64,000 nt of DNA from an uncultured Chloroflexia bacterium. GTDB lineage: Bacteria > Chloroflexota > Anaerolineae > CG2-30-64-16. The position numbers were made by a program, and so were the translations under genes. The notes beneath the pieces were generated by a model, which made no database searches, was not told the DNA's origin, and was given only the letters and a program-made list of their open reading frames with translations. The DNA lies in NCBI GenBank assembly GCA_963774265.1, contig CAVZDU010000005.1:1-64000 (forward strand). Reading direction: 5' to 3'. Shown here one piece after another: positions 9,790 to 55,452 of this stretch. Each line of letters starts with the position of its first letter. Within the stretch, counting starts at the first letter, position 1.

Positions 9790-9812
9790 CGATATTCCAC
9801 TACAGGGCGGCA
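9790..9812. other. Probable contig junction/chimera between two organisms
   Basis: Abrupt rise in GC and change of codon usage; the TPR gene begins mid-repeat (HYRAALALSRELGD) with no start context. Confidence 0.75.
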
Positions 9813-37605: not shown

Positions 37606-39591
37606 TCAGCGCGCGAGTTTGAGTGACGGATCGCCCAACAGATTGAACGTCAGCAGGATGTCGCGCACGCCACCGGCCTGATCGGGCAGCGCCATTTGCG
37701 CGTCGAGCACGATATCGCCCAACGAGCGCGTGCCTGGCCTGGCCAGCGCATCGGCCAGCCCCAGCGCCAACAGCCGCTGATCAGTCAGCACCGCCGCACT
37801 GCTCGGCACCAGCGCTGCGACCGCGCCTCCGCCCGCGCGGCGTAGCAGCACCTCGCTCAACGAGACCGTGGTGGGGTGCTCGAAGAAGCCGCTCAGGCAG
37901 GTCACCGTGAAGACGATCGGCAGGCGCCCGGAATTGTCCAGTTTCGCCGCATCCTCTACGTCGAACACCTTTTCCTTGGCCCACAGCGTCACGCTGCCGT
38001 GTCCGAAGTAGCCGATCAATCCGGCGCCGTCCCGAAAGCTGGCCCCCAAAGCTGCGCGGGCGTTCGCGCCGTCGCCCTCGATGGTCACCTGCTGCGAGGT
38101 GTAGCCCAGGCGGTTGGCGAACGCGGCCGCTTCCTCGGCGAAGCCCGGCTCATCGTTGTCCGCGACCAGCAACACGTCCGATCGCCACCTCAGGTCGCCG
38201 GCCTGGCGCTCGTAGGCCAGCGTCTTCTGCACCATAATCGCCAACTGCTCGGCGGTCTGCGCCGGGAAGCGCCCCACGGCGAAAGCGGGTCTTGTTGTCG
38301 GCCCGTCGTCGGGCAGCGCGTACCACACATCCGAGCCGGTCCAGCCCGAGAAGGTCGTGTAGACGCTCCGGGTCGGCACGAGATCGCTTTCAGTCCCCTT
38401 CAGCCAGCCCATCGGATCGTAGCTCGCGTCGCCGGCCAACAACAGGTAGGCTGGGGCCGGCGCAGTCCACTTCTGCCGGGCGTGCCGCATGAGCGCCTGG
38501 AGGGCTGCGGGATCGATGCGCCCGTGGCTGAACGCGTCGTAGACCTGCTCGACATCGAGCACCGCGACGCGCAGCCCCTGCGCCGTGCGCGCTGCAACCA
38601 ATGGCTTGAGGGTATCGCGGAACTGGGGCACGGTGATGATGACGAGGTCCGCGCCGCCGGGCCAGTCGGGCAGCGGATTCTCTGTGGTGGCCGCGATGGC
38701 GACTGGGGTCAGCACCGCGGCCGCATTGGCGGCCGCATCATCCGGCGCGGGCGTGCGGGGGTAGGCTATTTCCACCCACCGCAGATGCAGCGAGTCCGCG
38801 GCCGCGCCGGTGTCGCCCGGTGCGTCGATGACCAATTGATTCTCGTCCGGCTTCAGCACGCCGGCCGGGATGAGGGCGGTGACAAGGTGCGGACGCGCGC
38901 CATCCCACGCAGCATCAGAAATAAGCGTTCCGTTGAGGCTGATGAGGAGCCGGTGATCCGGGTCAACAGGCGCAGACGACTTGCTGATGACGAAGACCCG
39001 CAGCTCGCCGGGTCCCGCAGTCATGCCCGGGGCAGCGAGTGTGATTTTCGCTTCGGCCGGGGCGAAGAGCGTCTGCCAGTACCAGCGATCGGAGATCGCT
39101 TCGGCCTGGCCATCGTAAGCCAGGTCTCGTTCAAGACGGACGGTGGCAGTGACGACGCCGGTCGTTGAAACCGGCGTTGGCGTCGCTTGCGGGCGAGGCG
39201 CGGTCTCTGCTGCGCCCTGGGTTGCCCCTGTGACGCGACGCAGCCAGTAGACGTTGCGGGGCGTATAGGAATCGGAAGAAAGCCGCAGGCCATGAAAACG
39301 CACGGCAGCGTCACGGCCCTGGCCCACCAACTCGAACGCGATGGGCTGCCCTCCGACCGATAGCGCGAGCTGATCGGCGGTGGCTGACGCCAGGTCGAAT
39401 CCAGCCCTGGCCAGCTCCGCGGCCGTCACCTGGTAAATGCCATCTTCCTCCAGGCTGATCTTGACCGCGGACACGCTCTCTGCCGGCGGCGCAACGCACC
39501 CCGAGAGGAGGGCGACAAGCGCCAGGCCAAGGAACGCAAGGCCGATCGGGATCGAGCGGGAGTAAGTTCGGACATTGACCATAGAACTCAA
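37606..39591 (-). CDS. C25 (gingipain/PorU-like) cysteine peptidase, lipoprotein
   Basis: LSGC lipobox; EDGIYQVT...L; YDAFSHG, YLLLAGDASYD, VGRFP, YFGHGS (His), TCLSGFF (Cys), LLGDP. Confidence 0.88.
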   Translation of the reverse strand: MSSMVNVRTYSRSIPIGLAFLGLALVALLSGCVAPPAESVSAVKISLEEDGIYQVTAAELARAGFDLASATADQLALSVGGQPIAFELVGQGRDAAVRFHGLRLSSDSYTPRNVYWLRRVTGATQGAAETAPRPQATPTPVSTTGVVTATVRLERDLAYDGQAEAISDRWYWQTLFAPAEAKITLAAPGMTAGPGELRVFVISKSSAPVDPDHRLLISLNGTLISDAAWDGARPHLVTALIPAGVLKPDENQLVIDAPGDTGAAADSLHLRWVEIAYPRTPAPDDAAANAAAVLTPVAIAATTENPLPDWPGGADLVIITVPQFRDTLKPLVAARTAQGLRVAVLDVEQVYDAFSHGRIDPAALQALMRHARQKWTAPAPAYLLLAGDASYDPMGWLKGTESDLVPTRSVYTTFSGWTGSDVWYALPDDGPTTRPAFAVGRFPAQTAEQLAIMVQKTLAYERQAGDLRWRSDVLLVADNDEPGFAEEAAAFANRLGYTSQQVTIEGDGANARAALGASFRDGAGLIGYFGHGSVTLWAKEKVFDVEDAAKLDNSGRLPIVFTVTCLSGFFEHPTTVSLSEVLLRRAGGGAVAALVPSSAAVLTDQRLLALGLADALARPGTRSLGDIVLDAQMALPDQAGGVRDILLTFNLLGDPSLKLAR

Positions 39592-40532
39592 GGTTGTCGG
39601 GAACGCATATACAGCAGCGCCGCAGCCAACAGCCCGGCCAGCCCGATGGCGCTGCCGCCGATCACCCAGGCAAGTGCTGTGTTCCTTCCACTCTGCGCCG
39701 CTGCCTGCGAGGCTGCGTCCGGCGACGGTGTGGCGCTCGGGCCCGAGGCCTCGAAGATGCTTGGCGTGCTTTCGCGTGGCGGCCGCGGCGTCGCGGTTTC
39801 CAGGCCTGCAGGCTGGACCTGGGGCGTTGGGGTCAGCGCCGGCAGTTGAGTGGGCGCCGGCTCAATTGGAGCGGGAACGACGCTGGCCGGCGCTTGTGGG
39901 GCTGTGCCGGTGGGCGTCTTCACCGACGCAGCCGGCAGGGACGTTGCCGTTCGCCGCACGACGGGGGGCGCGGTAGACTGAACGCCTGGAAGCGGCGTGC
40001 CGGATGGAACGGCCGGGGTGTTTGTGAACTGCCGTGTTGCCGTCGGCGGCGGCGTGTCAGTCAGAGGGATGCCAGTTATCGTAGGGCGCGAGGTCGCGGT
40101 CGGATTCCTGGTGACCGTGGCCGTGGCGGTAGATGTTGAGGTGTCGGCGGGCAGATCAATCCCGGCCCAGATTGGCCCGAATTGTGACGTGCCCGCGTTT
40201 GACAGTTCCTCCAGGAGGTAGAAGTACCTGACCCCACTCGTCACTGTCAGATCAGTGTACTCGTAGATTGCGCCGGTGACGACGTTGCCTTTTGGACCTT
40301 GAGCATCGATGGGCGTCCCCCAACTGGATGGCGAAGCGATCTGAGCGCGAAAGAGCCGAAAGCCAGAGGTATCCAGTTCGGTTGCAGTCTCCCACACGAC
40401 CAGGATGGAATTGCCTTGGTGCGCGCTTGCCTCAAAGCGCACCAGGGTTACGGCGGCCAGAACGGTGTGAACAGGCACGACCAGACACAACACAGCCATG
40501 ATCATGACGGCCAGTAGATGTTTACGGTGCAT
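39588..40532 (-). CDS. Secreted protein: AVTLVRFEA + 'WETATELDTSGFRLFR' Ig/FN3-like domain, PT-rich linker, C-terminal TM
   Basis: Signal peptide MHRKHLLAVMIMAVLCLVVPVHTVLA; TM followed by RSRQP. Confidence 0.8.
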   Translation of the reverse strand: MHRKHLLAVMIMAVLCLVVPVHTVLAAVTLVRFEASAHQGNSILVVWETATELDTSGFRLFRAQIASPSSWGTPIDAQGPKGNVVTGAIYEYTDLTVTSGVRYFYLLEELSNAGTSQFGPIWAGIDLPADTSTSTATATVTRNPTATSRPTITGIPLTDTPPPTATRQFTNTPAVPSGTPLPGVQSTAPPVVRRTATSLPAASVKTPTGTAPQAPASVVPAPIEPAPTQLPALTPTPQVQPAGLETATPRPPRESTPSIFEASGPSATPSPDAASQAAAQSGRNTALAWVIGGSAIGLAGLLAAALLYMRSRQP

Positions 40533-40561
40533 GTCGATGTTTCTACTCCCGGGCGCGAACA

Positions 40562-42964
40562 TCACCGCGTGACCACCGGCAAGAACAGTCTCGTTGGCGA
40601 GGCCGGCAACCGCATGGCGGGATCGCCAAACAAGGTCATCGTGTCGATCAGGTAGTGCTTGCCATACACTTGGCTGAACTGCTGCTTTGCGATGGTCAAC
40701 GCAACACCAACCTCTCGTATGTTGTCTTTGAACATAACGTCGAGAAGGATCTTCCGGAATGCCAGCTGGTGCGACGTTGTGCCCAAGCCGGACGGCGAGA
40801 CGGCGGCAATGGAGCCGCCCCCGGCGTGGCGCTGCATCAGTTCCGCGATGCTGAACCTCGCAGGGTCCGGATGTGCGAAGTAGCCATCGAGACAGTTGAA
40901 GGTCATGATCAGGGGCAGCTTCTCGCCATTTACGAGGGCAGGGATGTGGGAGCTGCGCCAGATGCTTTCGTGAGTCCATCGCTCCGGCGCGCCGTGTCCG
41001 GTGAATTGAACCATGAAGGCGCCGGCCTGGAGCGCGTCCGCGAGGGTCGAGTGGGTTGCCGCGATCTGCTCGGGAGTGGCAGGTGTGACGGCATCGCCGG
41101 GCAGGTACGCACGCACCACCTGGAGATCCGTTGGGGTATAGCCGGCGATGATCTCGTCGGACACTGCGGGAAAGTCGCCGGAAGAGTCCGGATTGTCGGC
41201 CACGAATAGCGCGCGGCGCTGCCAGTCCGCAATGCGCAGGTTTTCGTCGTAAGAAACGATCTTGTCCACCACGGTTCGCGCCTCGGCCAGTGTATTCACG
41301 GCGAGCCGGCCCACCGCAATCTCAGGCACCCTGTCGTCATCGATATCACCGAACTGGGCATCTGCCGGCACCTCGCCCTGCCATGGGTCCACCCACGCTA
41401 AGAAGGGCGGAATGTGCTGGGGCTGCAGGGGGTAGACTGCTTGATTGTTACCCTTGAAGTTCCAATGGCCGTCGCCGACGAGGGTCAAGTAAGCCGGCGC
41501 AGGCGACTGCCAATTGGCCACGGCCCATTTCATCATCACCTGCACGGCCTTTGGATGGAAGATGCCGTCGTTAAACTCATCGTACGCGTCCTGGATATCG
41601 ACCACCAGGGCACGGCGGTCATGAGCGCGATGCCACCCTGCCAGTTGCTCTGCCGCGACCCTTAGTTCAGCCGAAGTAACGATAACTGCGTCGGCGCCTC
41701 CCGCGGGATTGCGTAACCCGGTGGGGGGCCGTATCCGGATCGAAGCTGGCGCCTCAGCGGTGGTTGCGGTTTGTATCCAATACCGGCTGCCGACGGTGGT
41801 ATTGACGCGGAACCGGACGGTCACATCGGGACCTGATGCGGGTGGAGCGGATAGACGTACAGGATGCTTTGTGTCGGTGATATCCCAAATGAGCGTCTCA
41901 GGGCTTGACCAGCCTGATGCGGCGTACTCCTGGATTCCTCCCTCCTCCGATCGGAAGTCTAGCCGGTCCCCCCACGCGCGGAAAAGGCGACGATAATCCA
42001 GCTCCCAATAGTTCACATAAATGTCGTCATTGGGGACGCCGGGAAGCAGCATGGCGCTCACTGTCAGCGTGTTGGTTCCATGTGTCAGACCTCCTGCGGG
42101 AACAGGAGCGTTGAACACCTTTCGTACGGAGAGGCCATCCCAATTCTCGTCGAGGATTGTCGCACCGTTTAGCGTCGCCACCGTGCGATGGTCGGGGTTC
42201 AGATTCCACACGTATGCGTTGCTGATTTCCTCCAGGCGCAGCGTGGCGGCCGCGGCCGCCGGATATGGCACCACGTAGGGCAAATCGGCGGTGGCCGTCT
42301 GAGCCAGGATCCCGTTCCAGATTTGATCGGGTTCGGATCGCCTCTCGACGGCCGGTGCTGCGGCCCCTGCAGATAATGCCACCGGGCTCAAGCGGCTCCA
42401 AAACCACGTGTCCTGTGTATCCAAGCCCAGGGTGTATAATGTCCACCAAACATTCGACTCCTCGGCTCGTAACGTGGTCGCAAAATCCGTAGGCGGGGTG
42501 CGATCGTATTGAGGTGTGGCATCCCGCACCTCGATGCGCGGCCCCGTGGCGCCCCCGATGTCCAGCCAATACACGCGTTCATCCGTGTACTTCTGGTCCA
42601 TTTCTGGCCCGCGGAACTTCTCGCCGAAGAAATAGAGCGCATCACCCCCGTCGAATATCCCGTTGCCATCATCCGTCACATGGATTGCGACAGGTTGCCC
42701 CAGGCTCGACAGGGCGAAAGTGTTTGGGTTGGCGCCCGCGAGATTTGGATCGGCGTTCGCCAGATCGGCCGGCGTGACCTTTGTGATGCCGTCTTTGACG
42801 ACGCCAATGCGGACGCGGACAGGCCCTGCGGCCTCGGTACGCCGCGCGGTTGCGGGCGGCAGCATGGCAGTCAGGGCCAGAAGCAGGGCCAGGACAAGGG
42901 ATGCGGACCGGGAAAAGCGAACGGCCGGCCGCACCTTGGAGTGCATGATCGGTGTTAGTTGCAT
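40562..42964 (-). CDS. C25 (gingipain/PorU-like) cysteine peptidase with LFLPVVTR tail
   Basis: VKDGITKVT..DL; YDEFNDG, LVGDG, VGRL, FTGHG (His), NCLDGYF (Cys), LFGDP. Confidence 0.9.
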   Translation of the reverse strand: MQLTPIMHSKVRPAVRFSRSASLVLALLLALTAMLPPATARRTEAAGPVRVRIGVVKDGITKVTPADLANADPNLAGANPNTFALSSLGQPVAIHVTDDGNGIFDGGDALYFFGEKFRGPEMDQKYTDERVYWLDIGGATGPRIEVRDATPQYDRTPPTDFATTLRAEESNVWWTLYTLGLDTQDTWFWSRLSPVALSAGAAAPAVERRSEPDQIWNGILAQTATADLPYVVPYPAAAAATLRLEEISNAYVWNLNPDHRTVATLNGATILDENWDGLSVRKVFNAPVPAGGLTHGTNTLTVSAMLLPGVPNDDIYVNYWELDYRRLFRAWGDRLDFRSEEGGIQEYAASGWSSPETLIWDITDTKHPVRLSAPPASGPDVTVRFRVNTTVGSRYWIQTATTAEAPASIRIRPPTGLRNPAGGADAVIVTSAELRVAAEQLAGWHRAHDRRALVVDIQDAYDEFNDGIFHPKAVQVMMKWAVANWQSPAPAYLTLVGDGHWNFKGNNQAVYPLQPQHIPPFLAWVDPWQGEVPADAQFGDIDDDRVPEIAVGRLAVNTLAEARTVVDKIVSYDENLRIADWQRRALFVADNPDSSGDFPAVSDEIIAGYTPTDLQVVRAYLPGDAVTPATPEQIAATHSTLADALQAGAFMVQFTGHGAPERWTHESIWRSSHIPALVNGEKLPLIMTFNCLDGYFAHPDPARFSIAELMQRHAGGGSIAAVSPSGLGTTSHQLAFRKILLDVMFKDNIREVGVALTIAKQQFSQVYGKHYLIDTMTLFGDPAMRLPASPTRLFLPVVTR

Positions 42965-43062
42965 CGTGAAACCTTCGAAGGAAAAATACGCCAGACGCAC
43001 GCCCGGATCAAGGCGAGGCGTCTGGCGCAACAGTGCGAACGTAGGGCTGGATCGTTAGCACA

Positions 43063-43091
43063 AGTATATCGGTCGCAGGGGGGGTTGTCAA
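43063..43091 (-). promoter_or_regulatory. Sigma70-type promoter for the C25 operon
   Basis: TTGACA-N17-TATACT. Confidence 0.65.
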
Positions 43092-43096
43092 ATGAT

Positions 43097-45419
43097 TTAC
43101 GGGATGGCCTGGCCTCGCCACACGCCCTGGCCGGCCGCATAGTTGCTGGTCCAGGCATAGATGTCCCCCCCGAAGGCCGTGAGCTCTGCAGCATTGTTCG
43201 CCGGGCTACCGAAACCGGTCGGCCCCACCTGCTCCCAGGCTGAACCATCGCGCGTTCGCCACACGCTTGTGCCGAGCGTGCTGTCGAGCGCGGCCACGTA
43301 CAGCCCATCGCCAGTGGCGACAGCGGCATCGGAGATGAAGCGGCCCGTGCTGCGCGCACCGAAGCTGACGGGGCTGGACAGCTGCCAGGATCCGCGGTCG
43401 CCCGTGGTGCTGCGCCAGATCCTGCGCGCCCTTGCCGGGCAGCGAAAACCCAATGTAGAGCGCGCCATCGTAGCTGTCCAGTACATCCACGCGAGCGATG
43501 TCATTTCCCAGACCGGCGTCCACGGGAGAAAACACCTTTTCCCACGCGGCGGGGTCATCGACGTTGCGCGTGCGCCAGATGGATCCTGGCTTCGTCATCG
43601 CAGTGACCGGCTGGGCCTCCACGCCGAAATAGAGCGCGCCGTCGAACTCGGCCGACGACCAGATTTTGACGTTGTTCGGGTCCCCGAAACCGTCCGCGTT
43701 TCGCTGCCGCCACTGGAGGAGGGTCGGATCCTGCGGATCGCGCGTGACCCCGTCGGTGCACCACACCTGCGCGCCGGGCGCCTGGCCTGGCCCGCCCCAA
43801 TTGCTCGTGCCCCCGCACAGCCGGCTGCGGAAGACGATCATATCCTTGAAGTTTTCGTTGCTCTGTTGCCCGAATCCCGGTTGGTTCACGCGTTCCCAGC
43901 TTCGGGGATCGCCCGTTGCGCTGCGCCACACCTGCGACCCGCGCTTATCGCCCGTCTGCATGGCGGTGGACGCGTACAGGAAGCCGTCGAACGGCTCGAT
44001 GCTGTCAATGTGGTCGTTGTCGGTGGTGGGCGGCAGCACCGCACAGTCGGTGGACCCGTCGAAGCCGTCGGAGACAACCTGTTCCCAATCCTCCTGGCTT
44101 GCCGGCGCCAGGACGCCCGCCTTGCTGCGCCAGATTCGCGCGCACGCCCTGCCCTCCATGCCCAGGTAGAGCTGATCCCTGAACACGGTCAGCTCGAAAC
44201 CCTCCTGACCGGTGTATTCGTCCACGTGTTCGCCAAACCCGGGCCTGTTGACCTGCGTCCATGCCAACGCGCACTTATCCAACGTGACCGCGTCGAACGG
44301 CTCGCGCTGGTCGTCGATGGCGGTGAGGGTGAGACTGCAACCTCGCACATCGGCTGCAACGAAGCTGTACCTGGACGCACTGAAGGCTGTCCACGCGCTG
44401 TGGCCAACGCTGTCGAGGAGTGCACCGCCGCCGCCGGTTACGATGTAGGTGACGCCCGGTTGGTCGGGGGCCGCGGGCTGCTCCTGCCACAGCGGCACGG
44501 TGCGCTCGTAGTCGCGGTCGTGGCCCGCGAAGACGACGTCCACGCCGCCCTGCTCGAACAGGGGACCCAGCGCATGGCGCACCTCGAGATCGCTTCCCTG
44601 TGCCCCGGAACTGTACGGCGGCTCGTGCAGGGTGACGAACTTCCACGGCTGCCTGCTCGCGGCCAGGTCGGCGGCCAACCACGCGTGCTGCGGTGATCCC
44701 GCGCCGAACGGCGCAGACGTATCCAACGCGACAAAATGTGCTGCGCCCCAGTCGAAGGAGTATACACGCTCGGCCAAGCCGGCCGGCCCGTTTTGGGGAA
44801 GATAGAACGCTTGCAGATAGGCGGCGGGCGGATCGACCTTCAGATCCCCGTCGCCGGCCGCCGGATAGATGGGTGCAAATGACATCAGGTCACGATACAC
44901 GGCGAAGACATCCGTGTCATGCTCCGCGGTCGTGCCGCCCCTCGTGAGGTCGCCCGTGTGAAGGACGAACGCGGGCCGCCTGGCGGCCATGCCTGTCGCG
45001 ATGGCGACCGCGGCAGTGGATGCACCCTGGCTTTCACCCGTCACCGCAAAGGTGAACGTCCCTCCCAGGGTCGCGGTGGTGAACGTCTGCGGGGGTGCTG
45101 CGGGCTGGAATCCGCGCCATGCCTGGTAAGTGACCTGTTGCTCGGGTTCAAGACCGGTCAGGGTGGCGAAGTAGTCGGTCCGGCCATTTGCCGTATGTTC
45201 TTGGGCGGCCGCGCGGCGGGTCAGCGCACCATCCAAGCCATAGCGCACCTCAGCCGCCCCGCCCACGAGCGTCGCCCAGGCTACCACCGCCGAAGTCTGC
45301 GTCACGTCCTGCACGTAGGGCGCGGTCAGAAGGAACGGATCGGTGGCGGGCGGGCCGGCCATCACGATGGGCAGATAGATGCCGAGCCAAATTGCCAGGC
45401 AGAGGCGTAAGTAGAACAT
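43097..45419 (-). CDS. Purple-acid-phosphatase-like metallophosphoesterase (FN3-like N-domain) fused to a beta-propeller, frameshift at ~43440
   Basis: HTGDL, YSFDWGAAHFVALD, HEPPYS, FAGH.RDYER, YIVTGGGG; then W.QV...GFG repeats. Confidence 0.8.
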
Positions 45420-45535
45420 CGTCGCGCTCGATCATACCCTTGGTTGGCCGAACGGACAAAGTCCGGTCTGCCGCGCGATCCACACGCGGGGGCTGCATCG
45501 CGACCTACACGTGGGGGCCGTGGCGCAATCCACAC

Positions 45536-45809
45536 GTAGGGGCGAGTGTGGCGCCGGCGAGAAGACCGGCATCCAGGCGTCCCACATCGGACCACATACA
45601 TCCGCTACCACAAACCTTTCTACGCCGCACTCGCCCTGGTCGGTCGCCGCGAACAGTGCATGGACGGCGTGCGCGATACGTGGTTCGATGCGGCACGCGC
45701 CGCCAACAAGGGCGAGTGCGGCGCACAGATGTTTGTCGTGGCGCATGTTTGCGATCCCATCCACCACGCGCCGTATCGTGGGTCGCGCCGGCGCCACACT
45801 CGCCCCTAC
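45536..45809. repeat. REPIN/BIME-like unit A bounded by inverted 24-bp GTAG REPs
   Basis: GTAGGGGCGAGTGTGGCGCCGGCG at 45536 and its exact reverse complement at 45786-45809. Confidence 0.85.
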
Positions 45810-45813
45810 GCAA

Positions 45814-46338
45814 TTACGCACCGGGGATTTGGGGGTGGTGTTCGTCGTGCGGCCAGTTGAGGGGGTTGTCGTGGATGTATTTGCGAATCGCGTCCAGATT
45901 GGCGTCGGAGCGGATGATGCGTTCGTAGTAGTTTCTCTGCCAGACCTGGCGGCCGGTCACGCCTCGGATCCGGTTTATGCGTTGGGTCGTGGTTGATTTG
46001 TATGCGCCAATGATGGCGCCCAGGGAGCCGGTCGGCGCGCCGGCGGGAGGCGTGGACGGAAGGGATGGGGCGTGAACGGGGTTGAGCCTGGCTTGGTTGA
46101 TGATCAGGATGCCGTGCAAGTGATTGGGCATCACCACCCACGCATCGAGGGACACGTGCGAGAAGCGCTTTGGTAGTCGCAGCCAGAAGGATTCCGCGAT
46201 CCCCTGCAGGATGGCATCATCAAACAGGCATTCTCGCCCCTGTGTTACGATCGTCACGAAATAGGCGCCGCTCTGCGCATAATCATATCCTGGCAGCCGG
46301 ATCGAATGACGATCGTGTTTATCAGGATCGTACCTCAT
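45814..46338 (-). mobile_element. REP-associated tyrosine transposase (RAYT, Y1_Tnp)
   Basis: SIRLPGYDYAQSGAYFVTI, VVMPNHLHGI (HUH), WQRNYYERIIR...YIHDNP..W. Confidence 0.92.
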
Positions 46339-46396
46339 TTCTGGCGCTCCTCCGGCAGGACCACAGCATCACATTTGGGGGCGGCGAGAACCACGC

Positions 46397-46730: not shown

Positions 46731-46836
46731 ATGATGACGCGGCGCGGACGGTGTGCGTGGATGACGGAACAAAAAACGCACGGTGGCTGCCTTGATGGCA
46801 ACGCACCGTGCACCGGTAATCAGGAGATGTTATACG

Positions 46837-47548
46837 TCAGGCCGTGCGGCGGCGGCTGATGGCCAGGCCGGCCACGACGAGCAACGCCACGGCGCCGAGG
46901 CCGGCATATAGCGGCCAGGTGGGGACGGGATCGCCGGCGGCGAAGGTGGAGAGTGTGACAGAGTTGGCATCGTACATGCTGAGATCGGCACTGCTGAACG
47001 TCGCATTCGCTCCGCCAAATGGGCAGCCCGTCATCATGACGAACAATGTCCCGCCCGAGCTGGCAGGTTTGGCATTCAAATAGTTGATCAAGCCCGGAGC
47101 ATTAGTACTGCTATCAAATACAAGTTGGCTACCGGAAATCGACGCGGTTCCAAGAGTCCCATTTGAAGCGATCGGGGGGAAAGTTGTACCACCATTCAAG
47201 CTGGCCTTGGCCCAATTCTCACCAGAATCGGCGATTCCATACAGCGTAAACGACACCCCCGCTCCAGGATCAACTCCTGCCAGAGCGAGTGTTAATTTGG
47301 TAGGCTTTGGGGTGCCGCTGATTGACCCGTTCGACATGCTCCATTGCATGTAGACCGCCGTCTTGGGGTTGCATGCAGAAAAAGAACCTGTCGCCGTCGC
47401 GCTCAGCACGTCGGGATAGGGAGTGGAGTCACCAGAGGCTGCAGTTGCAGCCTGATCAGGGCCACCAGAATTGAGCTGAGCCAGCACGTGTCCCCGCGGA
47501 GAGAACCAAGAGACTTATGATGGCGAAAAGAAGAATTCGTTTGTACAT
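46837..47548 (-). CDS. Secreted protein with a C-terminal VTLSTFAA-linker-TM-RRR anchor, frameshift near the N-terminus
   Basis: AAGGAG RBS, MYKRILLFA...; ends NSVTLSTFAAGDPVPTWPLYAGLGAVALLVVAGLAISRRRTA. Confidence 0.75.
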
Positions 47549-47589
47549 GTTCGACTCCTTATCTAGTTCGCGTTAGAAGAAGCCTGGGT

Positions 47590-48306
47590 CTAGGGCCAGG
47601 AAGTGTTGGCTTTTAAACAGACCATGTAAGGATACCCGGGCTGTACTGCAAAATCCGTTCCATGCGGGATGACGTTCGGCAGCCAGTAGTCCGTAAAATC
47701 CTGGTCGGCGGCCTGCCACTGTAGCACTTGGTCCACCACAGAGGGCCCACCCATCGCAGTAACCAGATCCGATGCGTGACTGATACCAGCGTTCCATTGG
47801 TCCAGTGGAATGATGATGTTGTTGTAGGCACAATTCGGACTCGCGCCGACCAAATTATTGTACTTTACATCTCCAACCGGAGGAACGTCGCCAACAATCG
47901 AGAATACGGATGGTGCAGTCGAATCAAGCCGGATCCAGTATACGCCTCCTACCTCAAGCGAGAAGTTAGCTCCATGAGGAATAGTATTGGGTAAGTAGTA
48001 ATCGGTGAAGTCCTGAGCAGCAGCATTCCAATGCAGGACCTGATCCACTGTCTTGGGCTGTCCAACTGGCGCCTTGTTGAGGTAATCCACCAGCGCGACA
48101 GCATTCGGAATGGAACCTGTGGCATCCAGGGGAAGGGCAACAACGTTATATCTATACGTTACATCCGGCGCGTCCGGCGCAGCCGCCGCGGACACAACCG
48201 GCGCGGCCGCCAGGGGCGCACCCGCGTTGGGCAGCGCCAACACGGCCAGTGCGCCCAGCCCAAGGAGCAGGGCGACGGCGAGGACTGTGGTCAAAACTCG
48301 TTTCAT
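47590..48306 (-). CDS. Secreted protein with two tandem 'YNxxxxPLD...VDQVL.W.AA.QDFTDY.LPN.IPHG..F...G..Y' repeats
   Basis: AAGGAGG RBS, signal peptide, clear internal duplication. Confidence 0.8.
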   Translation of the reverse strand: MKRVLTTVLAVALLLGLGALAVLALPNAGAPLAAAPVVSAAAAPDAPDVTYRYNVVALPLDATGSIPNAVALVDYLNKAPVGQPKTVDQVLHWNAAAQDFTDYYLPNTIPHGANFSLEVGGVYWIRLDSTAPSVFSIVGDVPPVGDVKYNNLVGASPNCAYNNIIIPLDQWNAGISHASDLVTAMGGPSVVDQVLQWQAADQDFTDYWLPNVIPHGTDFAVQPGYPYMVCLKANTSWP

Positions 48307-48387
48307 AAGAAGTTACCTCCTTGAGCCGGTCGATCGGCCATCGCAGGGCCGCGTAAAGTTGAGATGCGCCTAGGTGAGGTATGATAG

Positions 48388-48416
48388 ATTGTACATCCCC
48401 CCGCGGTGGTTGTCAA
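48388..48416 (-). promoter_or_regulatory. Sigma70-type promoter
   Basis: TTGACA-N17-TACAAT. Confidence 0.7.
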
Positions 48417-48571
48417 TTGGCATTAAGTAGCATAAGTCGGGATGACTTCGGCATTCCTCGGAAGGGAACCAGCAAGGGCTACTGCTCGTGAATGCGGCCC
48501 AGTCCATGGGAGTGGCGCCGGCCTGGCAACCAGGGAATCCATCGTCCCGAAGGGGACGGTCACAATGTGGA

Positions 48572-48603
48572 ATAGGGCTGCACAATTGAGGTGCAGCCCT
48601 TAA
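48572..48603. terminator. Hairpin terminator downstream of the peptide gene
   Basis: AGGGCTGCAC-aattgag-GTGCAGCCCT. Confidence 0.65.
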
Positions 48604-48721
48604 CCTCTACCGGAAGTTGAGATCGCCCGCGACCACGGAGGCATATACGTCCCACCTGCGGGCTCTCTTGCCACCTCGAAAGGCGAGCGGAACAACGAGA
48701 AATTTCGCAGGTGATGGCGTC

Positions 48722-48850
48722 CTACTTGTTGGCGCCCGTCAGATCAAGCGGATCCTCGATGCCAAGGCGAGTACCCGCCCGGACTTCCAGCACTGACTCG
48801 TAGACCACCGCGGGCTCCTCGTATGGCTTGCGCTCCAGTTTCTGCTCCAT
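48722..48850 (-). CDS. Putative RiPP precursor peptide, 42 aa: MEQKLERKPYEEPAVVYESVLEVRAGTRLGIEDPLDLTGANK
   Basis: AGGAGG RBS; RKPYEEPAV leader of the YxxP type recognised by RREs; immediately downstream of a PqqD gene; absent from the ORF track. Confidence 0.8.
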   Translation of the reverse strand: MEQKLERKPYEEPAVVYESVLEVRAGTRLGIEDPLDLTGANK

Positions 48851-48883
48851 AAATTCCTCCTAAAACTGATTGTGACACTACAA

Positions 48884-49168
48884 CTACAAAAGCGGTTCGT
48901 CGAGGCTCAGCAGCCCTCGTCCGGCCAGGTCACGGCAGAAAGCCAGGGCATCCGCCTCTGCCTTGTCCAGGCTGACCTCGTACTCGACGGCGATCACCCG
49001 GGCCATGCCGGTCACCGTGTGTTGGCCATCGGCCAGTTCCCACAGCCTGGCGCCGACTCCGTTCAACACGACAACTTTGCCCTGCACCGGATGAACCAGG
49101 ACCGCCTCACCGTCGAGCGTGCGGCTGGCAACGCCCGATACACGGCGGGGATGGTCGCTCAACACCAT
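48884..49168 (-). CDS. PqqD family RiPP recognition element (RRE)
   Basis: RTLDGEAVLV...VLNGVGARLWELADG..TV..MA..I..EYEV...A..D...F..DL..RGLL. Confidence 0.9.
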   Translation of the reverse strand: MVLSDHPRRVSGVASRTLDGEAVLVHPVQGKVVVLNGVGARLWELADGQHTVTGMARVIAVEYEVSLDKAEADALAFCRDLAGRGLLSLDEPLL

Positions 49169-49172
49169 GCCT

Positions 49173-50030
49173 CTACCCATCTCGACGGTTCGTTCCGGCG
49201 TTGATGACATCCCAAAACGAGTCGTCTTTGCGGAAGTGCAACCGCTCTACACCTACAGTTACGACAATGTCCCGGCATCGGTCGAGCAGGCCGGGCAACA
49301 GGGCTGGCTGACTGTTGATAATCGGGCAATTGGCCGTCAGCTCTGCTGTTGCCGCCCCGGCGCTCATCGGCGAAACAAAGACGTCCGGGTCCTGAGCTAG
49401 CTTGTAAATCGCGCGAATCGAACCGTTGTCAAGTTGCCCGTCGTGGTCCCCGGTCTCCAGGTTCCAAAAGGGCGTGCCGTATGCCCACCAGCCTTGAGCC
49501 TCTCGACGTAAGAGGATCAAGTCGTCCCCTAGCGCTGTCGCTCGCCGGCTTGCTCTTGAAAGCGAAACAACGGTTGACTTGCCGCTGCCGCTCTGTCCGA
49601 TGAACAGATAGATGCCTGCGCCTGCTTTGAGGGCCGCACAGTGAACCAACAGGCCGCCGGCATGATAGGCGAACAGCGCCAACGCGACACGCAGGAAATA
49701 CTCGATTTCACGCGTCAAAGCATCGGAGCGCACGCGCAACGATGCACGTGCTTCGAATGGGGCAATCATACCACAGAAATTGCTGCCGTCAAGTAGGAAT
49801 TTGTCCCCACTCGTCCTTAAGATGGCGTCCAGGAGACTGGCGCTCGCCTCGGTGCTCGCCTCAGCGCCCGCCTCAGCGGCGATCTCAACGATCAGGTCTG
49901 CCGCCTGGCCCTCATCCGGGCTGCAAAAAGGCGCATAGCGCGGCGCGATGGCTGCGCCAAGCGCCGGCGGATGAAGTTCCAGCCTGAGGCGCCAGCCGGC
50001 CAAATTCAAATACATCGTGTGGTGGTCCAT
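49173..50030 (-). CDS. HPr kinase-related P-loop protein (ScmC-like)
   Basis: GLLVHCAAL, LFIGQSGSGKST (Walker A), LGDDLILL, AYGTPFW. Confidence 0.82.
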   Translation of the reverse strand: MDHHTMYLNLAGWRLRLELHPPALGAAIAPRYAPFCSPDEGQAADLIVEIAAEAGAEASTEASASLLDAILRTSGDKFLLDGSNFCGMIAPFEARASLRVRSDALTREIEYFLRVALALFAYHAGGLLVHCAALKAGAGIYLFIGQSGSGKSTVVSLSRASRRATALGDDLILLRREAQGWWAYGTPFWNLETGDHDGQLDNGSIRAIYKLAQDPDVFVSPMSAGAATAELTANCPIINSQPALLPGLLDRCRDIVVTVGVERLHFRKDDSFWDVINAGTNRRDG

Positions 50031-50048
50031 CGCATCGCGCAAACGCGT

Positions 50049-50512
50049 TCAGCCGGTATGGGCGCGCGTCTTCTGCAGCAGCCGGCCACCGCGCCACCAG
50101 ACCACGAGCACGAGCAGCGCAAGTCCCCCCAGCACCAGGCCGTGGCGCCAGTCCAGCCCGCCGGCGCGCACGCTGATGGGGCCGAATTTGTTGATCGCGC
50201 CGTTGCGCTCGACCTCCTGCAATTCGTAATAGTAAGTCACACCCGCCTGGGCCGTGCGGTCGACGTAGCTGTACTCTCCGCCGGTCATCGGATCTGCTGA
50301 CGGCGGTATCAGCGCATCATTGATCTTGGCCTCGAACGGCCCATCGGGCGAGAGGCCGCGGTAGAGGTTGAAGCCGGCCGTGTTCATCTCGGTTTCGGTC
50401 TTCCAGGTGACGCGCACCGGCGCACTGCAGCCCCCGAGCACCAGGACGAAGATCAGCACGGCCAGTAGGGTGGAGGGTGAGCGGTGGGTGGCGAATGACC
50501 TATGGACACTCA
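50049..50512 (-). CDS. Lipoprotein-like protein with 'WKTETEMNTAGFNLYR' Ig/FN3-like domain and C-terminal TM
   Basis: LGGC lipobox; YSYVD...GVTYYYELQEVE; same domain as 39588..40532. Confidence 0.75.
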
Positions 50513-52392
50513 AAGCGAAAATCCCTTTCCAGTGTGGTTTCCTCACGGCATGCACCGGCTGCCACTGAAAGAGCGCTGCCCATGGCGCCGGCCTGTTTGC
50601 GCACGAAAAGGCGGTAGGGCCTGGCCGGCACGCCCGGCGGCAGGCGGTAATGAAGCGCCACCAGGTGCTGTTCGCCAGGTTTGAGCACGAAATCGCCCGT
50701 GAAAATGGTCGTGTCGCGCACGCCGGCCTCGGTTGCCGGGTCGTTGAGCCCTTCGATCGAAATCAACTCGCTGCCGCCCGGCGCGTAGATGCGCACGTAA
50801 CTCCAGTAGCAGCGCCGCGCCAGGTCATCATACGTCGCACCGTAGCGCGGGCGCGGTCGCAAATCGGCTCGGAACCGATGGGGGCCGTGTGGGTGTAGGT
50901 CAGCTTCAGCGAGGCCACCAGGCGGCCGTCCTGCTCCTCGACCGTGTAGTCGATCCGCTGCTGCACGAGCAGGTTTGCCTTGTTGAAGCCAACGTTGCTG
51001 TCGACCACAAGCAGAAAGTCGCTGTCATCCGGCGGACGCACACCGCCATCCCAGCGTCGCTCGGCCAGCAGCGCGGCCAGAGCCGGGTCGTCCACCGCCA
51101 CTTGCAGATTGCGCGCCTCGAGCGCGGTGTAGAGCGCCCGTGCGAGGGCCGCCATGTCTATATCCGCGCCGCTTTGCAGCGGTCCGCCTTGCACCCGGCC
51201 CAACGCGGCCTTGACCAGCTCGCCCATGAAGTCCTTGCGCTGCTCCCACCAGGCCGTGCCGCCGCCGGTCTCCGGCCCGGTTTCACTGCCCACGGGCGCC
51301 TGCCAGGCGGCTTTCATCCACTGAATGGCGTTATCGCCCGTCACGGGTTCATTGATGCCGGGCACCTGGAGAGGTCCCACTGCGCCCACGAGCAGGCGCA
51401 CCGCCTCGAGATCCAGCGCAACCGCACCATCGGTCTGTATGCCACGATCCTGCAAGTACAGCGCGCGCGCCACGTCGGCAGCTTCGGGGAAATCGGGCGA
51501 CCAGTTGCTGTCACGCAGCAGCCAGAGATCCGCGGCCATGTACTTGGCCAGCGGCGCTGGCGGCGCGGTGTGGGGCTGCTCGAAGTTATCGACCGCATAG
51601 CTGTCTGCCAGCGTCAGGTCGGTGATTTTCCCCCGGTCGAACGTCACGTGTCCGGCGCCGCTGATGAAGCCGCCTGTGCCGCGCAGCTCATCGTTATTCT
51701 GGGCGAGCACGAGGTAGGTGCGCGGGCCATCGACGCCGAGGAGCGCGGGCGATCTCCGCAAGCTCCAGCCCATCGATCGCCAGCGGCAACAGCGCGTCGA
51801 GTTTCGTGAGCTGATCCGCCAGCTTCGGTTCGGTCAGCGGCGGCAGCGCTGCGCGGAGTTCGGCTGCGCGGGCCATGCCCGCGCGTGCAGCCTGCAGTTG
51901 AGGCTGCGCGGCCTGGAGCGCGTCGACCGCCTGCGGCAGCGCGTCCAGCCCGCCGCCACCGGCCACCATTTCGCCGATCGGCGCGAGCGCGTCCACCGCG
52001 GTGCGGCCCGCCGTCGACAGCGCCCCCGCCATATCGAGCAGCTGGGGCGCGATGACGATGTCCGGGCCAAAGCGCGGCGCCCAGCCCAGGTGCGGCGCGA
52101 GGCGGAGGAACGGGCCGGCCGCGGCTTGAGCCTCTTTGAGATGGGTGTCCAGGCTGGCGATATCGGCCTGAACGTGGGACAGCGATTCGAGGGAAGGCTG
52201 CGCCATGGCGGCCTGCAGCCGATCAAGGTCGGCCAGCGCAGCGCGCGCGTAGATGCCGGCGCGCGCCGCGCGCCAGCCCAGCCATCCCACCAGCGCGAGC
52301 GTCGTGACGATGAGCGCTACGGCCAGCCATCGCCGGAGGGTTTGCTCTCGAGTTTGTTCCCCCTGTGCTTCGATCATCGAGCCATGTGTCAT
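50500..52392 (-). CDS. DUF4012 domain membrane-anchored protein, frameshifted
   Basis: PRTYLVLAQNNDELRGTGGF, RDSNWSPDFP, DSNVGFNK, YRLFVRKQAG. Confidence 0.85.
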
Positions 52393-52403
52393 TCAGCGAT
52401 GTG

Positions 52404-53967
52404 TCATCGTATGACGGATAGGTCGTTGCGTGCAGGGCGCAGGCGCACCAGCACGCCGGTCTGTTCTTCGACGATGCCAGGCAGGGCTAATGCCAGGTCA
52501 TCGGCCCGATATACCGGTCGTTGAGCGGCCCATGCCGCTTGAAGTGATTCTTCCAGTGGCGCCTTCGATGGCAGCACACCCGGGTGCGTCTCGGCGAAGG
52601 TCGCGTCGTACCAGTCAAAGCCGTAGAGGTTCACGTTCAACACGGCCACATCATTCCGCTGGCGCAAACCATAGACGCCATACCACAGCGCAAATGTGGT
52701 CCGGTCGCCGGTTGTCAGGATGAGCGAGTCCGGCTCGGCCTCCGCCAGCGCAGCGGAGAGGAAATCACGTGCCTCACGGTCGCTTCGCAGATCATGGGCC
52801 GCCCAGTTGCGCACCAGCGACGCGGCCGGCAGTGCGGCCAGCAATACGATCACCGCAGCTGCACGCCATGCCGTCCCGCGCAGTCGTTCGATCGCCCAGT
52901 CGATGGCCAGGGCGGCCCACAATGCGACCGCGGCCCACGCCGGGATCAGATAGACGTTCGAATCGGTCGTATTATAGCCGATCCCGTAAATTGTGAAGGC
53001 CAGGAAGACGAGCAGCGTCGCGCGCCACCACGCGCGATCCCGCCACCGGAGCCGCCAGAGCCCGGCCAGCGCCAGCAGCAGTCCCCACGGTCCGCCGAAC
53101 TGCCACATGGCCTCGCTGATCCAGCCGAGTAGGCGTGCGGGTGCATCGACCAGGGGCAGCCCGAACGGCAGCCCTGCGTACAGCCGGCCTGAGACCGTCC
53201 ACAGGAAGCGCCCCGGCGTGACAGGATCGCCCCAGTTGATTGGCGGGCGACCTGCCGCGGCGAGGGGCAAGTAGCCGTACACGAACAGGCCGAGGAGGGT
53301 GCAAAGGCCCGCAACGGCCAGTATCCCGTCCGCCCCGAGGGATGCCCCGCCTATTCGCCCAAACCCAGGCCGCCAACCCGGGCAGGATCAGGGCCAGCGT
53401 CAGGTGGTTGCCCAGCCCCAGCCCAAGGACCAGGCCCGCGGCCTGCAGCGAACGGCCATCGGCGTCCTCAGCCCAGCGCCACATCAGCCATAATAGCGCC
53501 ACGGAGGCCAGCGCGTTGAGCGCATAGACCTCGGTGATGGTCGCCTGTCCCCACACGGCAGGTGCTGCAGCCCACGCGAGCGCGGCGACTGTACTGGCAA
53601 TCGCTGCCGGCCATGGGGCCTTCCCGATCTGGGTGACCTTCGAGGTCTCCGGCACCTCGATGGTGCCGGGAGCCGCGAGCATCCGCTGGGCCAGGTCAGC
53701 CAGAAGCGCGGCTGCCAACGCGGCGCAGATGGCCGAGAGCCAGGCCCCCGCGCGGGCGGGATCGCCGCCAAGGATAGCAATGGCCGCTCGGAGGGCAAGT
53801 TGATAGGTCGGATAGCCGGTGGGATGAGGTACACCGTGGGTTAGCGCTGCAGCGAGCAGATCGCCGCCGTCCGCGCCACCGTGCGCCCAGGTGAGCCCCG
53901 GCGCAAGCGTCAAGCCGTAAAGGGCGAACGCACCGAGGCCTGCAATGAGTGCGGGCCAGCGCCTCAC
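52404..53967 (-). CDS. DUF2723 / TMEM260-like GT-C membrane glycosyltransferase (putative protein O-mannosyltransferase), frameshifted
   Basis: TLAPGLTW..GGADGGDL.AA....GVPHPTGYPTY, QATITEVYAL, GNHLT, INWGDP. Confidence 0.85.
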
Positions 53968-53979
53968 GTCATCATCCCC

Positions 53980-54318
53980 TTACGGCTGGAGGCAGCCTCC
54001 TGTGGCCGGTAGCTCGACCGGTGCAGGGCCCAAGCCGCCGCGAACCACCGTCGCCACGACGATTCTCGTCACGCGGGGAACGACCGTCGGAACGGCCGTT
54101 GTCCCCGGCTGAGGCGAAACGGACGCGGCCGGGACCGGGGTGTCGGCCGGCGGGCGATCCGTCGGCTCGATCGGAGCCGGCACGGGGGTGCGAGTGGGCA
54201 CCGTTTGCGCGTGGTTGCTTTGGCCGGTCGTGGCCCAGACGCCCGGTGCGGCGATCAGCACAATCAACAGAGCAGCCCCCACCGCTCCATACACGGCAAG
54301 ATGTCCCTTTTGCTTCAT
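53980..54318 (-). CDS. Small secreted Pro/Thr-rich protein ending in LPATG (sortase substrate candidate)
   Basis: Signal peptide; C-terminus VELPATGGCLQP*; directly downstream of the sortase. Confidence 0.7.
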   Translation of the reverse strand: MKQKGHLAVYGAVGAALLIVLIAAPGVWATTGQSNHAQTVPTRTPVPAPIEPTDRPPADTPVPAASVSPQPGTTAVPTVVPRVTRIVVATVVRGGLGPAPVELPATGGCLQP

Positions 54319-54342
54319 CTCTTCATATCTCCCTGCCTACAC

Positions 54343-55272
54343 TCAATCCTTGGGTTCGGCGATGACAATCAGGCGGTGGGTATTGTTGGTCGGCGGCCAG
54401 CAGGTCACAATGGTAAGGCGCTCGTCCTCAGTAGGCAGTATGTACTTGCCGTTGGCGATGCGTTGCGCCTGCGAGACGCCAGTGTCCTTCAACCGGTAGA
54501 ACCCGGTGATGGTGTAGGAATACTGCTTCCCCTGCGCGTCGAACAGCTCGATGGTTCGCCCGTTCAGGATATCCGACTTGTCGGTGAAGTTGTCGACCTT
54601 GACGCGTGTGTCATTGTCCCACGCCAGGCTGATCGGCTTGAACACCTGGCCGTAAATGTTGTTGTGCCCCGAGATGACCAGGTTGCCGGGCTCGCCGATG
54701 CCTGCGCTGTTAATGTGGTGTCCGGCAGCAGCCTCTGGGATCATCCATTGCGTGACCGGGCCGCTCGGTGTCTGAACGACCTTCCAACCCATGGGCACAA
54801 CTGCGGCATCTATCTTCAGATCGGGAATCGTCATCCGCACCGGGTCGATCGACGAAGTGCCGGTCGGTGGAGGTGCGGCCGCTGAAGCGCCTGCGGCTGA
54901 GCTTTTCGGCGGTGCTGCCGTGGCGCTCGGCGCGAGAGTCGCCGTGGCAGGCCGGCGGGTGGCAGTGACCTGCACCGGTTTGCGCGTGGCAGTCCGCGTG
55001 GCCTCAGCGACCACCGCTGCCTGGGCTGATTTGGTTTGGGTCGCCTTGGGGGCGGCCTGAGTGGGCGCCGGCGCGGTGGATTCCGCTGCAGGATCGGCGG
55101 CGACCGCTGCCGCATGGACGGTCGCGCCGGACGCGGTTTTCCGCAGCTGCGCACGCACCTGTGCGCTCTGAATCTCGGACCAGGCAAAGTAGCCGGCCAC
55201 CACCAAAACCAGGATCAGGCCCAGGCCCAGCAGGGCGGTGCCGAAGCTGCGACGTGCGGTGTGTTGCCCCAT
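54343..55272 (-). CDS. Sortase
   Basis: N-terminal TM; IPDLKIDAAV, GNLVISGHNN (His), LTIVTCWP (Cys), HRLIV (Arg). Confidence 0.9.
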   Translation of the reverse strand: MGQHTARRSFGTALLGLGLILVLVVAGYFAWSEIQSAQVRAQLRKTASGATVHAAAVAADPAAESTAPAPTQAAPKATQTKSAQAAVVAEATRTATRKPVQVTATRRPATATLAPSATAAPPKSSAAGASAAAPPPTGTSSIDPVRMTIPDLKIDAAVVPMGWKVVQTPSGPVTQWMIPEAAAGHHINSAGIGEPGNLVISGHNNIYGQVFKPISLAWDNDTRVKVDNFTDKSDILNGRTIELFDAQGKQYSYTITGFYRLKDTGVSQAQRIANGKYILPTEDERLTIVTCWPPTNNTHRLIVIAEPKD

Positions 55273-55452
55273 TAGTGCCTCCACTTGTCATTATAGCATG
55301 AATGCCGGGGTGCGCCGCAAGCGCGACCGAGATGCTCGCGACGCCGCCTTTCAGCGTGATCGCGAATTCCTCCGGATTTGACGATATGTTATCGATAAGT
55401 TGGGTTATGTTCTATTGCGGATGCCCTCGGAACGTGGTACGATTCCTGGTTG

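Follow-up and report, generated by a model that had tools for sequence, protein, structure and literature searches.

The prodomain of the gingipains, C25-family cysteine peptidases such as RgpB and Kgp (PDB entries 1cvr and 4ief), is a beta-sandwich seated on the active site, and we take 4ief to be the structure of a gingipain with this prodomain. PorU, another C25 peptidase, serves the secretion system of type IX (T9SS) and cuts its cargo before the C-terminal domain (CTD); T9SS CTDs are described as 3+4 beta-sandwiches that are cleaved in a sequence-independent manner (available parts of PMC11285876 and PMC4804311), anionic lipopolysaccharide (LPS) is named as the usual PorU acceptor (available part of PMC8545088), and T9SS is stated to be restricted to some Bacteroidetes (available part of PMC5445135). 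The linear polyphosphorylated peptides (LPP) of Bacillota, published in 2026, carry the leader motif YxxPxVLxHQxIxFETxxS (available part of PMC13381572). Here we analyse a stretch of 64,000 nt of contig CAVZDU010000005.1 from an uncultured Chloroflexota bacterium (the window), in which Pfam and NCBIfam scans of the open reading frames (ORFs) delimit a run at 37606-55284 that combines a trio of C25-associated genes with surface proteins, a peptide cassette, and glycan and sortase genes. ORF translations together with these scans confirmed that all genes listed for this run in a preliminary description of the DNA lie on the minus strand. We conclude that the trio belongs to a real and conserved PorU-like system that is independent of T9SS and apparently undescribed; searches of the literature for PorU or C25 in Chloroflexota, and for PorU together with HprK or PqqD, found no published description of such a system. 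The trio consists of the following genes:

37606..39591, minus strand: C25a, a PorU-like C25 cysteine peptidase and predicted lipoprotein (PF01364, E 6.1e-77; lipobox LLSGC; H531/C565)
39588..40532, minus strand: a membrane-anchored protein of 314 aa with an FN3-like domain (translation, AlphaFold2 model and FN3 fold), called the stalk protein below
40562..43030, minus strand: C25b, a PorU-like C25 cysteine peptidase with a signal peptide (PF01364, E 7.8e-78; H679/C713; C-terminus RLFLPVVTR)

Both enzymes had been proposed to be PorU-like and to have intact His/Cys dyads, and our results agree with both proposals. Of all NCBIfam models, NF033707, that for PorU, matches both C25a (194.6 bits) and C25b (232 bits) best, although neither reaches the equivalog cut-off of 420 bits; a PorU2 N-terminal model could be aligned to residues 73-809 of C25b, and the PorU structure 6za2 matches the two enzymes at E 1.5e-20 and 1.1e-16, with the gingipains scoring weaker (1e-12 to 1e-13). 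The dyads, with their GHG and C motifs, align with those of PorU (6za2) and RgpB, and they are invariant among the orthologues, namely, H679 and C713 in 12/12 C25b-type sequences, and H531 and C565 in 7/7 C25a-type sequences. No T9SS CTD was found on the C25 enzymes, Peptidase_C25 being their only Pfam match at E <= 0.01, and the sensitivity of the Pfam library for the CTD family PF18962 is shown by its detection in two other proteins, P0085 and P0058. C25a and C25b thus resemble PorU in having a C25 catalytic domain with a His/Cys dyad, a PorU-like N-terminal region and an extracytoplasmic location, but differ from it in their lower scores and in lacking a T9SS CTD. They share the C25 fold and dyad with the gingipains, to which their match is weaker than to PorU; C25a has a Gly opposite the S1 residue Asp163 of RgpB in a phmmer alignment that is gapped just before this site, the haemagglutinin and CTD regions are missing from C25a and C25b, and the partner domain described below is encoded separately or on other proteins. 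Judged by these sequence comparisons, C25a and C25b are PorU-like, extracytoplasmic cysteine peptidases.

The partner of these enzymes appears to be a folded domain. The preliminary description had treated VTLxxFxA, which stands as AVTLVRFEA at the N-terminus of the mature stalk protein, as a linear tag, and WxTxxE..GFxLxR as a second, separate motif. Neither view survived our analysis, since VTLxxFxA is strand A and WxTxxE..GFxLxR the B-C hairpin of one and the same FN3-fold domain of ~100 residues. In the stalk protein, the domain is encoded at 40155-40457 and reads AAVTLVRFEA..WETATELDTSGFRLFR, with AVTLVRFEA lying 13 residues from WETATELDTSGFRLFR. The AlphaFold2 model of the domain, built on 26 aligned sequences, has a predicted local distance difference test score (pLDDT) of 96.6 and seven strands, of which VTLVRFEAS is the first. 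The FN3 fold is found by VIA (Z 9-11.2, root-mean-square deviation 2.2-3.0 A, 82-96 residues aligned), and the top Foldseek matches are Fn3 domains at E ~1e-3; solved T9SS CTD structures are not among the 50 matches listed for each fold search by Foldseek and VIA. At the sequence level, the domain is matched by none of the Pfam and NCBIfam models, gives no Pfam fn3 match at E <= 1, and has no match to the T9SS CTD models PF18962 and TIGR04183. Only unnamed clusters were returned by the ESM Atlas, the nearest named ones (fn3 and Por_Secre_tail, both 0.82) being a mere lead. The proposed target of the enzymes would resemble that of PorU, as both would be folded beta-sandwiches of seven strands located C-terminally in the cargo; it differs from the PorU target in its FN3 fold and in being matched by no CTD model.

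Six-frame translation of the genome gave 62,311 ORFs, in which the signature W.T..E....GF.[LIVMF].R occurs only 5 times and in a placement beyond chance: this run accounts for two of the sites, two more are located at a distance of 5-9 kb from another C25 gene, the third in this genome, and at 3/5 sites the signature is preceded by VxLxxFxA. The domain family is large, with 4765 cluster representatives at E <= 0.001, and a cut-off of E <= 1e-10 leaves 164. The domain stands directly after a signal peptide in some proteins and is the final domain of large secreted ones in others; it is followed by nothing, by a transmembrane (TM) segment with a basic tail, or by a short tail of the YLPLVxR/K type at the extreme C-terminus; in 2/8 relatives scanned it directly precedes a T9SS CTD (PF18962 in P0085 and P0058). 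Relative to V-T-L, P is found at position -3 in 49/104 and A at position -1 in 45/104 internal copies. We discarded the idea that VTLxxFxA is a general signal for C-terminal sorting: a loose regular expression gave 375 matches in the genome, and among those located within 60 residues of an ORF end, only the surface protein at 46837 has the motif together with a TM segment and a basic tail. The sequence NSVTLSTFAA of this protein, which had been read as a second instance of the tag, is a chance likeness, as F.A is kept in 0/2 orthologues with complete C-termini; its counterparts there read AVTVATSSAE and SVTLTDSSAQ, and it is the anchor WPLYAGLGAVAL..SRRRTA that is conserved instead.

The genes for the domain and for C25 are linked across the phylum. 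In a set of 16 related loci, all on contigs of Chloroflexota metagenome-assembled genomes, 10 have C25b followed by the domain protein and then by C25a, as here. As for the other six, L005 and L016 end at the contig edge, L008 has only 1.3 kb downstream, and no downstream domain protein is found in L004, L010 and L015, where the C25b-type proteins of L004 and L010 have a beta-rich C-terminal extension of their own. We then surveyed 401 Chloroflexota genomes, with E <= 1e-30 defining a strong C25 match and E <= 1e-5 a domain match. C25 was matched in 69 genomes, including 93 strong matches in 54 genomes, and the domain in 63 genomes. Fifty-one of the 54 strong-C25 genomes also contain the domain, and the 12 genomes with the domain only are all weak matches, with a best E of 3.2e-12 or worse. 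A domain match lies within 10 kb of 43 of the 93 strong C25 matches, on the same strand in 43/43 cases and upstream in 32; these cases span 32 genomes and 11 families, compared with a rough chance expectation of ~1 (for a genome of 4.5 Mb with ~2.5 copies of the domain, and a span of 21 kb). In many of the genomes without adjacency, the C25 gene sits at a contig end. These results bear out the earlier suggestion that the VTL/WxTxxE element co-occurs with and adjoins C25 in Chloroflexota. The HprK-like kinase of the peptide cassette, which the preliminary description had listed for the same profiling, accompanies a strong C25 in only 17/54 genomes. In 12 regions, which were picked for holding a C25 gene, we found proteins of 3023, 1411 and 3915 aa that carry the domain at the C-terminus and are encoded directly upstream of a C25 gene. 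Fusions of the two exist as well, with the domain followed by C25 in giant ORFs of L052 and L056, and C25 followed by the domain in L009.

We predicted the structure of the complex between C25b (residues 66-822) and the domain using separate alignments; the preliminary description had put forward structure prediction of C25 with the motif peptide as a check. The model placed the N-terminal pole of the domain on the active site of C25b. The score was 0.75, and the best of three controls reached 0.00; in the calibration of the tool, this score is reached by 58/80 solved complexes and by 2/110 mismatched pairs. The complex runs gave 0.75, 0.16 and 0.79, share at least 70% of contacts and have a partner pLDDT of at least 80. 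The C25b side of the interface includes residues 678-684 (G-H679-G) and 712-714 (N-C713-L) as well as stretches of the PorU-like N-terminal region, and the side of the domain includes residues 1-6, 25-34 and 52-62, that is, the pole that holds the N-terminus and the signature hairpin. According to this model, the domain probably grips the catalytic His and Cys of C25b.

The suggestion that these enzymes work without T9SS also held. We found no match in the genome to SprA, the T9SS CTD (TIGR04183), GldM or PorV, with controls that were silent or weak; since the SprA, CTD and GldM controls were silent, we added searches for LpxC and Omp85, which had no match in the genome either and whose controls were positive in 4/14 and 7/14 genomes, respectively. 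The absence of SprA, PorV, GldM, LpxC and Omp85 matches sets this genome apart from those in which PorU is known. With no marker of an outer membrane or of LPS detected, the anionic LPS acceptor of PorU would not be usable here.

The stalk protein consists of a signal peptide, the domain, a Pro/Thr stalk of ~170 aa and a C-terminal TM segment ending in RSRQP. In 10/10 orthologues, the signal-peptide cleavage site lies one or two residues before V-T-L, and the mature stalk protein therefore begins like a cut cargo domain would. In the main reading, to which we assign a probability of roughly 0.5, the trio is a PorU-like module for surface-protein processing without T9SS, in which, by analogy with PorU, the domain would be the recognition element and cargo would be cut before it. 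C25a as a lipoprotein, C25b as a secreted enzyme and the intervening stalk protein would be exported by Sec, and the Pro/Thr stalk, probably O-glycosylated by the neighbouring TMEM260-like transferase, would hold the FN3-like domain far from the membrane anchor. The N-terminal pole of the domain, where strand A begins (VTL) and the WETATE..GF hairpin lies, would dock over the His/Cys dyad of C25. Cargo with the domain at its C-terminus would be cleaved within the linker immediately ahead of the domain, just as PorU cleaves ahead of the T9SS CTD, and would then be released or handed to an amine acceptor, with the membrane-anchored domain protein acting as a dedicated partner, either as dock, regulator or acceptor. 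Binding at the active site is predicted by the model of the complex, while we infer cleavage, transfer and an acceptor from the analogy with PorU. Because the mature stalk protein starts as a cut cargo domain would, we also considered a protein-to-protein sortase, in which cargo would be cut at approximately the junction of P-T-A and V-T-L, and the acyl-enzyme would be resolved by the N-terminal amine of the mature stalk protein (A-V-T-L), which would dock likewise. The domain of the cargo would in this way be swapped for the stalk-tethered one, with the phosphopeptide of the cassette as an alternative acceptor or a regulator. This version is a long shot; if true, the domain swap would be a new route of surface-protein anchoring in bacteria without an outer membrane.

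Several points weigh against the reading of the trio as a processing module. The domain is N-terminal in the stalk protein, where a cut before it frees nothing, and it can be repeated in tandem, with as many as 25 matched stretches in a single protein, which is odd for a leaving group. Its carriers in this genome amount to ~6 proteins, far too few for a general sorting signal, and P-T-A before V-T-L is also an ordinary start of an FN3 domain. One of the complex runs scored only 0.16, and likeness to the gingipain-prodomain structure in the PDB, presumably that of 4ief, may raise the score. As for the survey, the strong-C25 threshold was set after inspection of the list, the copy numbers of the domain are lower bounds because the search scored 10 candidates per genome, and the counts take related genomes as they stand although these are not independent. 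Moreover, three genomes (G016, G052 and G105) have a strong C25 without the domain, and the genome under study is 84% complete.

In the orthologues of the stalk protein from L001-L014, we observed conserved islands within the otherwise low-complexity stalk, namely, PTATRQF(T/P/Q)NTP (here PTATRQFTNTP) and a second one, ..TP(V/I)(V/I)F(A/G/E).., which lies ~45-60 residues before the TM segment, as well as (G/A)RN(T/S) immediately before this segment; these could be recognition, cleavage or glycosylation sites. A C-terminal tail of the form YLPLVxR is a separate observation. Some 23 large ORFs of the genome end in [YF][LA]P[LIVM][LIVM]x[RK] plus 0-3 residues, and in the window the tail is carried by C25b (RLFLPVVTR, 43030 end) and by three other proteins (30353-30376, 30455-30982 and 34074-34619). 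By hand count, at least 3 matches of the corresponding DNA pattern are found in 36/54 strong-C25 genomes vs ~8/347 others, and 6/13 C25b-type orthologues are without the tail. We did not retain it as a real tag of the system, as it is missing from several C25b orthologues and has at least 3 matches in G242 and G266, which are without a strong C25; it may be an undescribed surface-anchoring or sorting tail of Chloroflexota. The C25b-type paralogues of L004 and L010 end in a distinct extension of the pattern ..GYH/EVWRG/S..P.F..YFYVV/WLVRAA..VGEF(D/E)(F/Y)(L/A)L(V/T)R, which resembles one more beta-sandwich module, again with a tail of its own.

Upstream of the trio, the same run encodes a peptide cassette:

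48722..48850, minus strand: a precursor-like peptide of 42 aa, MEQKLERKPYEEPAVVYESVLEVRAGTRLGIEDPLDLTGANK, with copies in L001 and L002
48884..49210, minus strand: a PqqD-type recognition element (PF05402, E 1.9e-16) of the kind found with peptides that are made by ribosomes and modified after translation (RiPPs)
49173..50042, minus strand: an HprK-related P-loop kinase (GQSGSGKST; weak TIGR04249 and TIGR04355 matches)

The peptide, KPYEEPAVVYESVLEVRAG..GIEDPLDLTG, is 70-74% identical to its copies in L001 and L002, and its leader YxxPxV resembles, when compared by eye, the corresponding part of the LPP leader motif. The PqqD-type protein matches TIGR04248 ScmD (E 4e-11) and a lasso PqqD model (E 3.1e-08), in both cases below the cut-offs. 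The combination that marks LPP clusters, namely, an HprK-like kinase, a discrete PqqD-type RiPP recognition element (RRE) and a short precursor with a YxxPxV leader, is present here, and like those clusters it lies in a glycan/envelope locus (available part of PMC13381572). In contrast, the SpI-like (S26) leader peptidase, nucleoside triphosphate (NTP) transferase and MsbA-like exporter of LPP clusters were not seen with Pfam among the scanned ORFs of 37.6-55.3 kb. The available part of the LPP paper (PMC13381572) has 0 occurrences of C25, gingipain, PorU or Chloroflex*. We consider the kinase, PqqD-type protein and peptide to be a linked module of the linear-phosphopeptide kind, as far as sequence likeness goes. 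Its location beside C25, noted previously, recurs in other genomes: across the 401 genomes, the kinase profile gives 26 matches (E <= 1e-20), of which a hand count places 15 no more than 10 kb from a strong C25, including the one at C1:1007992 in this genome, and 2 more adjoin a domain match. In L050, L051, L053 and L058, PqqD or HprK-like genes adjoin C25 genes, and no further precursor peptides were found near them by a YxxP regular expression with ATG starts. Since the kinase is present in only 17/54 strong-C25 genomes, the cassette is a frequent add-on rather than part of the core.

Some of the evidence listed above could also be explained if the domain binds C25 without being a cleavage signal, either as a docking module of the cohesin/dockerin kind, which would bring large surface proteins and the peptidases together on the membrane stalk protein, or as a trans-acting, prodomain-like lid under which the peptidases stay latent until needed. 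The predicted interface lies over the active site itself, as that of an inhibitor would, an N-terminal domain on a membrane stalk is easier to see as an anchor or regulator than as a leaving group, and tandem arrays and C25-domain fusions do exist. However, the dyads are intact and invariant, and hence the enzymes must cut something; a large protein ending in the domain and followed by C25, an arrangement linked across 11 families, looks like a substrate with its enzyme; and the catalytic residues are faced by the N-terminal pole, the point at which the chain ahead of the domain comes in. We therefore regard mere docking or latency as possible but doubtful.

The cassette raises another explanation, in which the C25 enzymes are leader peptidases or maturases of its phosphorylated peptide, replacing LppS, which resembles a signal peptidase and serves the LPP clusters of Bacillota, and the domain proteins are bystanders. 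This would account for the position of 15/26 strong HprK-like matches within 10 kb of a strong C25, for the PqqD and HprK-like genes that adjoin C25 in L050, L051, L053 and L058, and for the lack of an S26/SpI-like peptidase among the scanned ORFs of 37.6-55.3 kb, but it leaves the adjacency of the domain to C25 and the predicted binding unexplained. It is also improbable given that the kinase is found in 17/54 strong-C25 genomes vs 51/54 for the domain, that the peptide has no signal peptide and the run no transporter gene, and that both C25 enzymes are extracytoplasmic. That the neighbours are altogether unrelated, with C25 enzymes that are ordinary proteases secreted for feeding, encoded in an island of surface proteins, and with a domain that is a common extracellular module, is very improbable: the window is indeed full of surface proteins with Ig-like, PKD and BNR domains, and a family of 4765 representatives at E <= 0.001 is a large one, but such a coincidence is hard to reconcile with 51/54 co-occurrence, with the same strand in 43/43 adjacent cases, with the fusions and with the predicted interface at the active site.

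The remaining genes of the run, and one gene next to it, are as follows:

36504..37592, plus strand: a lipoprotein convergent to C25a, with an internal duplication and no Pfam family
43097..45419, minus strand: a secreted metallophosphoesterase with a purple-acid-phosphatase-like N domain and a repeat-rich C part (PF00149, PF16656)
45814..46338, minus strand: a REP-associated tyrosine transposase (RAYT; PF01797, E 3.8e-07)
46837..47487, minus strand: a surface protein with the conserved C-terminal anchor WPLYAGLGAVAL...SRRRTA (translation, orthologue comparison)
47590..48306, minus strand: a secreted protein with an internal duplication and no family, kept beside the peptide cassette in L001 and L002
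50049..50555, minus strand: a lipoprotein with the same FN3-like domain minus strand A, plus a C-terminal TM segment (domain E 3e-32; the L001 orthologue is 73% identical)
50503..52392, minus strand: a DUF4012 protein with two frameshifts (PF13196, E 2.2e-35)
52404..53967, minus strand: a DUF2723/TMEM260-like GT-C glycosyltransferase with one frameshift (PF11028, E 2.1e-24; PF13231)
53980..54318, minus strand: a small secreted Pro-rich protein with the C-terminus VELPATGGCLQP, the LPATG protein (translation)
54343..55284, minus strand: a sortase, nearest to class E (PF04203, E 1.2e-17)

The metallophosphoesterase is also found upstream of C25b in L007, L012, L013 and L014. RAYT has no counterpart in any of the 16 related loci and is an insertion outside the system, as had been noted from the sequence. 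The surface protein at 46837 was previously given as 46837..47548; the protein is there, but its ORF ends at 47487, and it matches the GVDTG_CTERM model NF058571 only weakly (16.5 bits, cut-off 29). The lipoprotein at 36504-37592, of which copies with 57-73% identity follow C25a in six related loci (L001, L007, L011, L012, L013 and L014), contains two copies of the repeat ..IVWPH/KxG..ANITVYL..WDFNDVDV..VTVDGV.T.SN.WAHA.DARTLFPQ and may belong to the C25 system.

A surface cysteine transpeptidase encoded beside substrates with a C-terminal membrane anchor and basic tail would be reminiscent of the sortases of Gram-positive bacteria, which differ from the C25 enzymes in having an unrelated fold and in recognizing an LPXTG pentapeptide instead of a folded domain. 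The true sortase at 54343-55284 shares the run with the C25 trio but is not conserved with it: its counterpart was not found in the syntenic locus L001. No orthologue of the LPATG protein was detected in the 16 related loci. With 43.3 bits against NF033747, the sortase stays below the class cut-off of 160. The LPATG motif itself is present as described before, but the protein stops 5 residues past it, with no hydrophobic stretch and no charged tail, unlike the motif, hydrophobic stretch and basic tail of the LAxTG substrates of class E sortases.

Compared with intact orthologues, three genes of the run contain four frameshifts, located at 43400-43450 (phosphoesterase), 50850 and 51750 (DUF4012) and 53300-53350 (glycosyltransferase). 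The 781-aa phosphoesterase of L014 spans two frames here, the 639-aa DUF4012 protein of L001 spans frames -2/-3/-2, and the 637-aa glycosyltransferase of L001 spans two frames. The third C25 gene of the genome is likewise split across three frames, and both of its neighbouring domain proteins are fragmented too. This points to either indel errors in the assembly, which consists of 10 contigs and is 84% complete, or decay of the frame-shifted genes. The third C25 gene belongs to a second, smaller copy of the system at G000:C1:1004861-1014428, which comprises the C25 gene, an HprK-like kinase and two domain proteins; the kinase (C1:1007992-1008618, E 1.5e-48) is 2 kb from the C25 gene, and the domain proteins are 5-9 kb off. 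At the start of the window, positions 1-10000 have a G+C content of 0.50 vs 0.61-0.69 elsewhere and contain short ORFs only. We found no rRNA or other RNA families in the first 12 kb of the window and no tRNAs in the whole window; the low-G+C first ~10 kb might stem from foreign DNA, from a mobile element that has decayed or from a join made in the assembly.

Taken as a surface-protein processing module, the trio pairs a PorU-type enzyme with its own partner domain, and does so in a phylum for which we found no markers of an outer membrane or of LPS; this link spans 11 families of Chloroflexota. If this reading is true, the processing and anchoring of giant surface proteins in Chloroflexota would become directly testable, a function would be assigned to a large domain family of 4765 cluster representatives that no model describes, and a concrete hypothesis would be at hand for the phosphopeptide cassette that recurs beside C25 peptidases.

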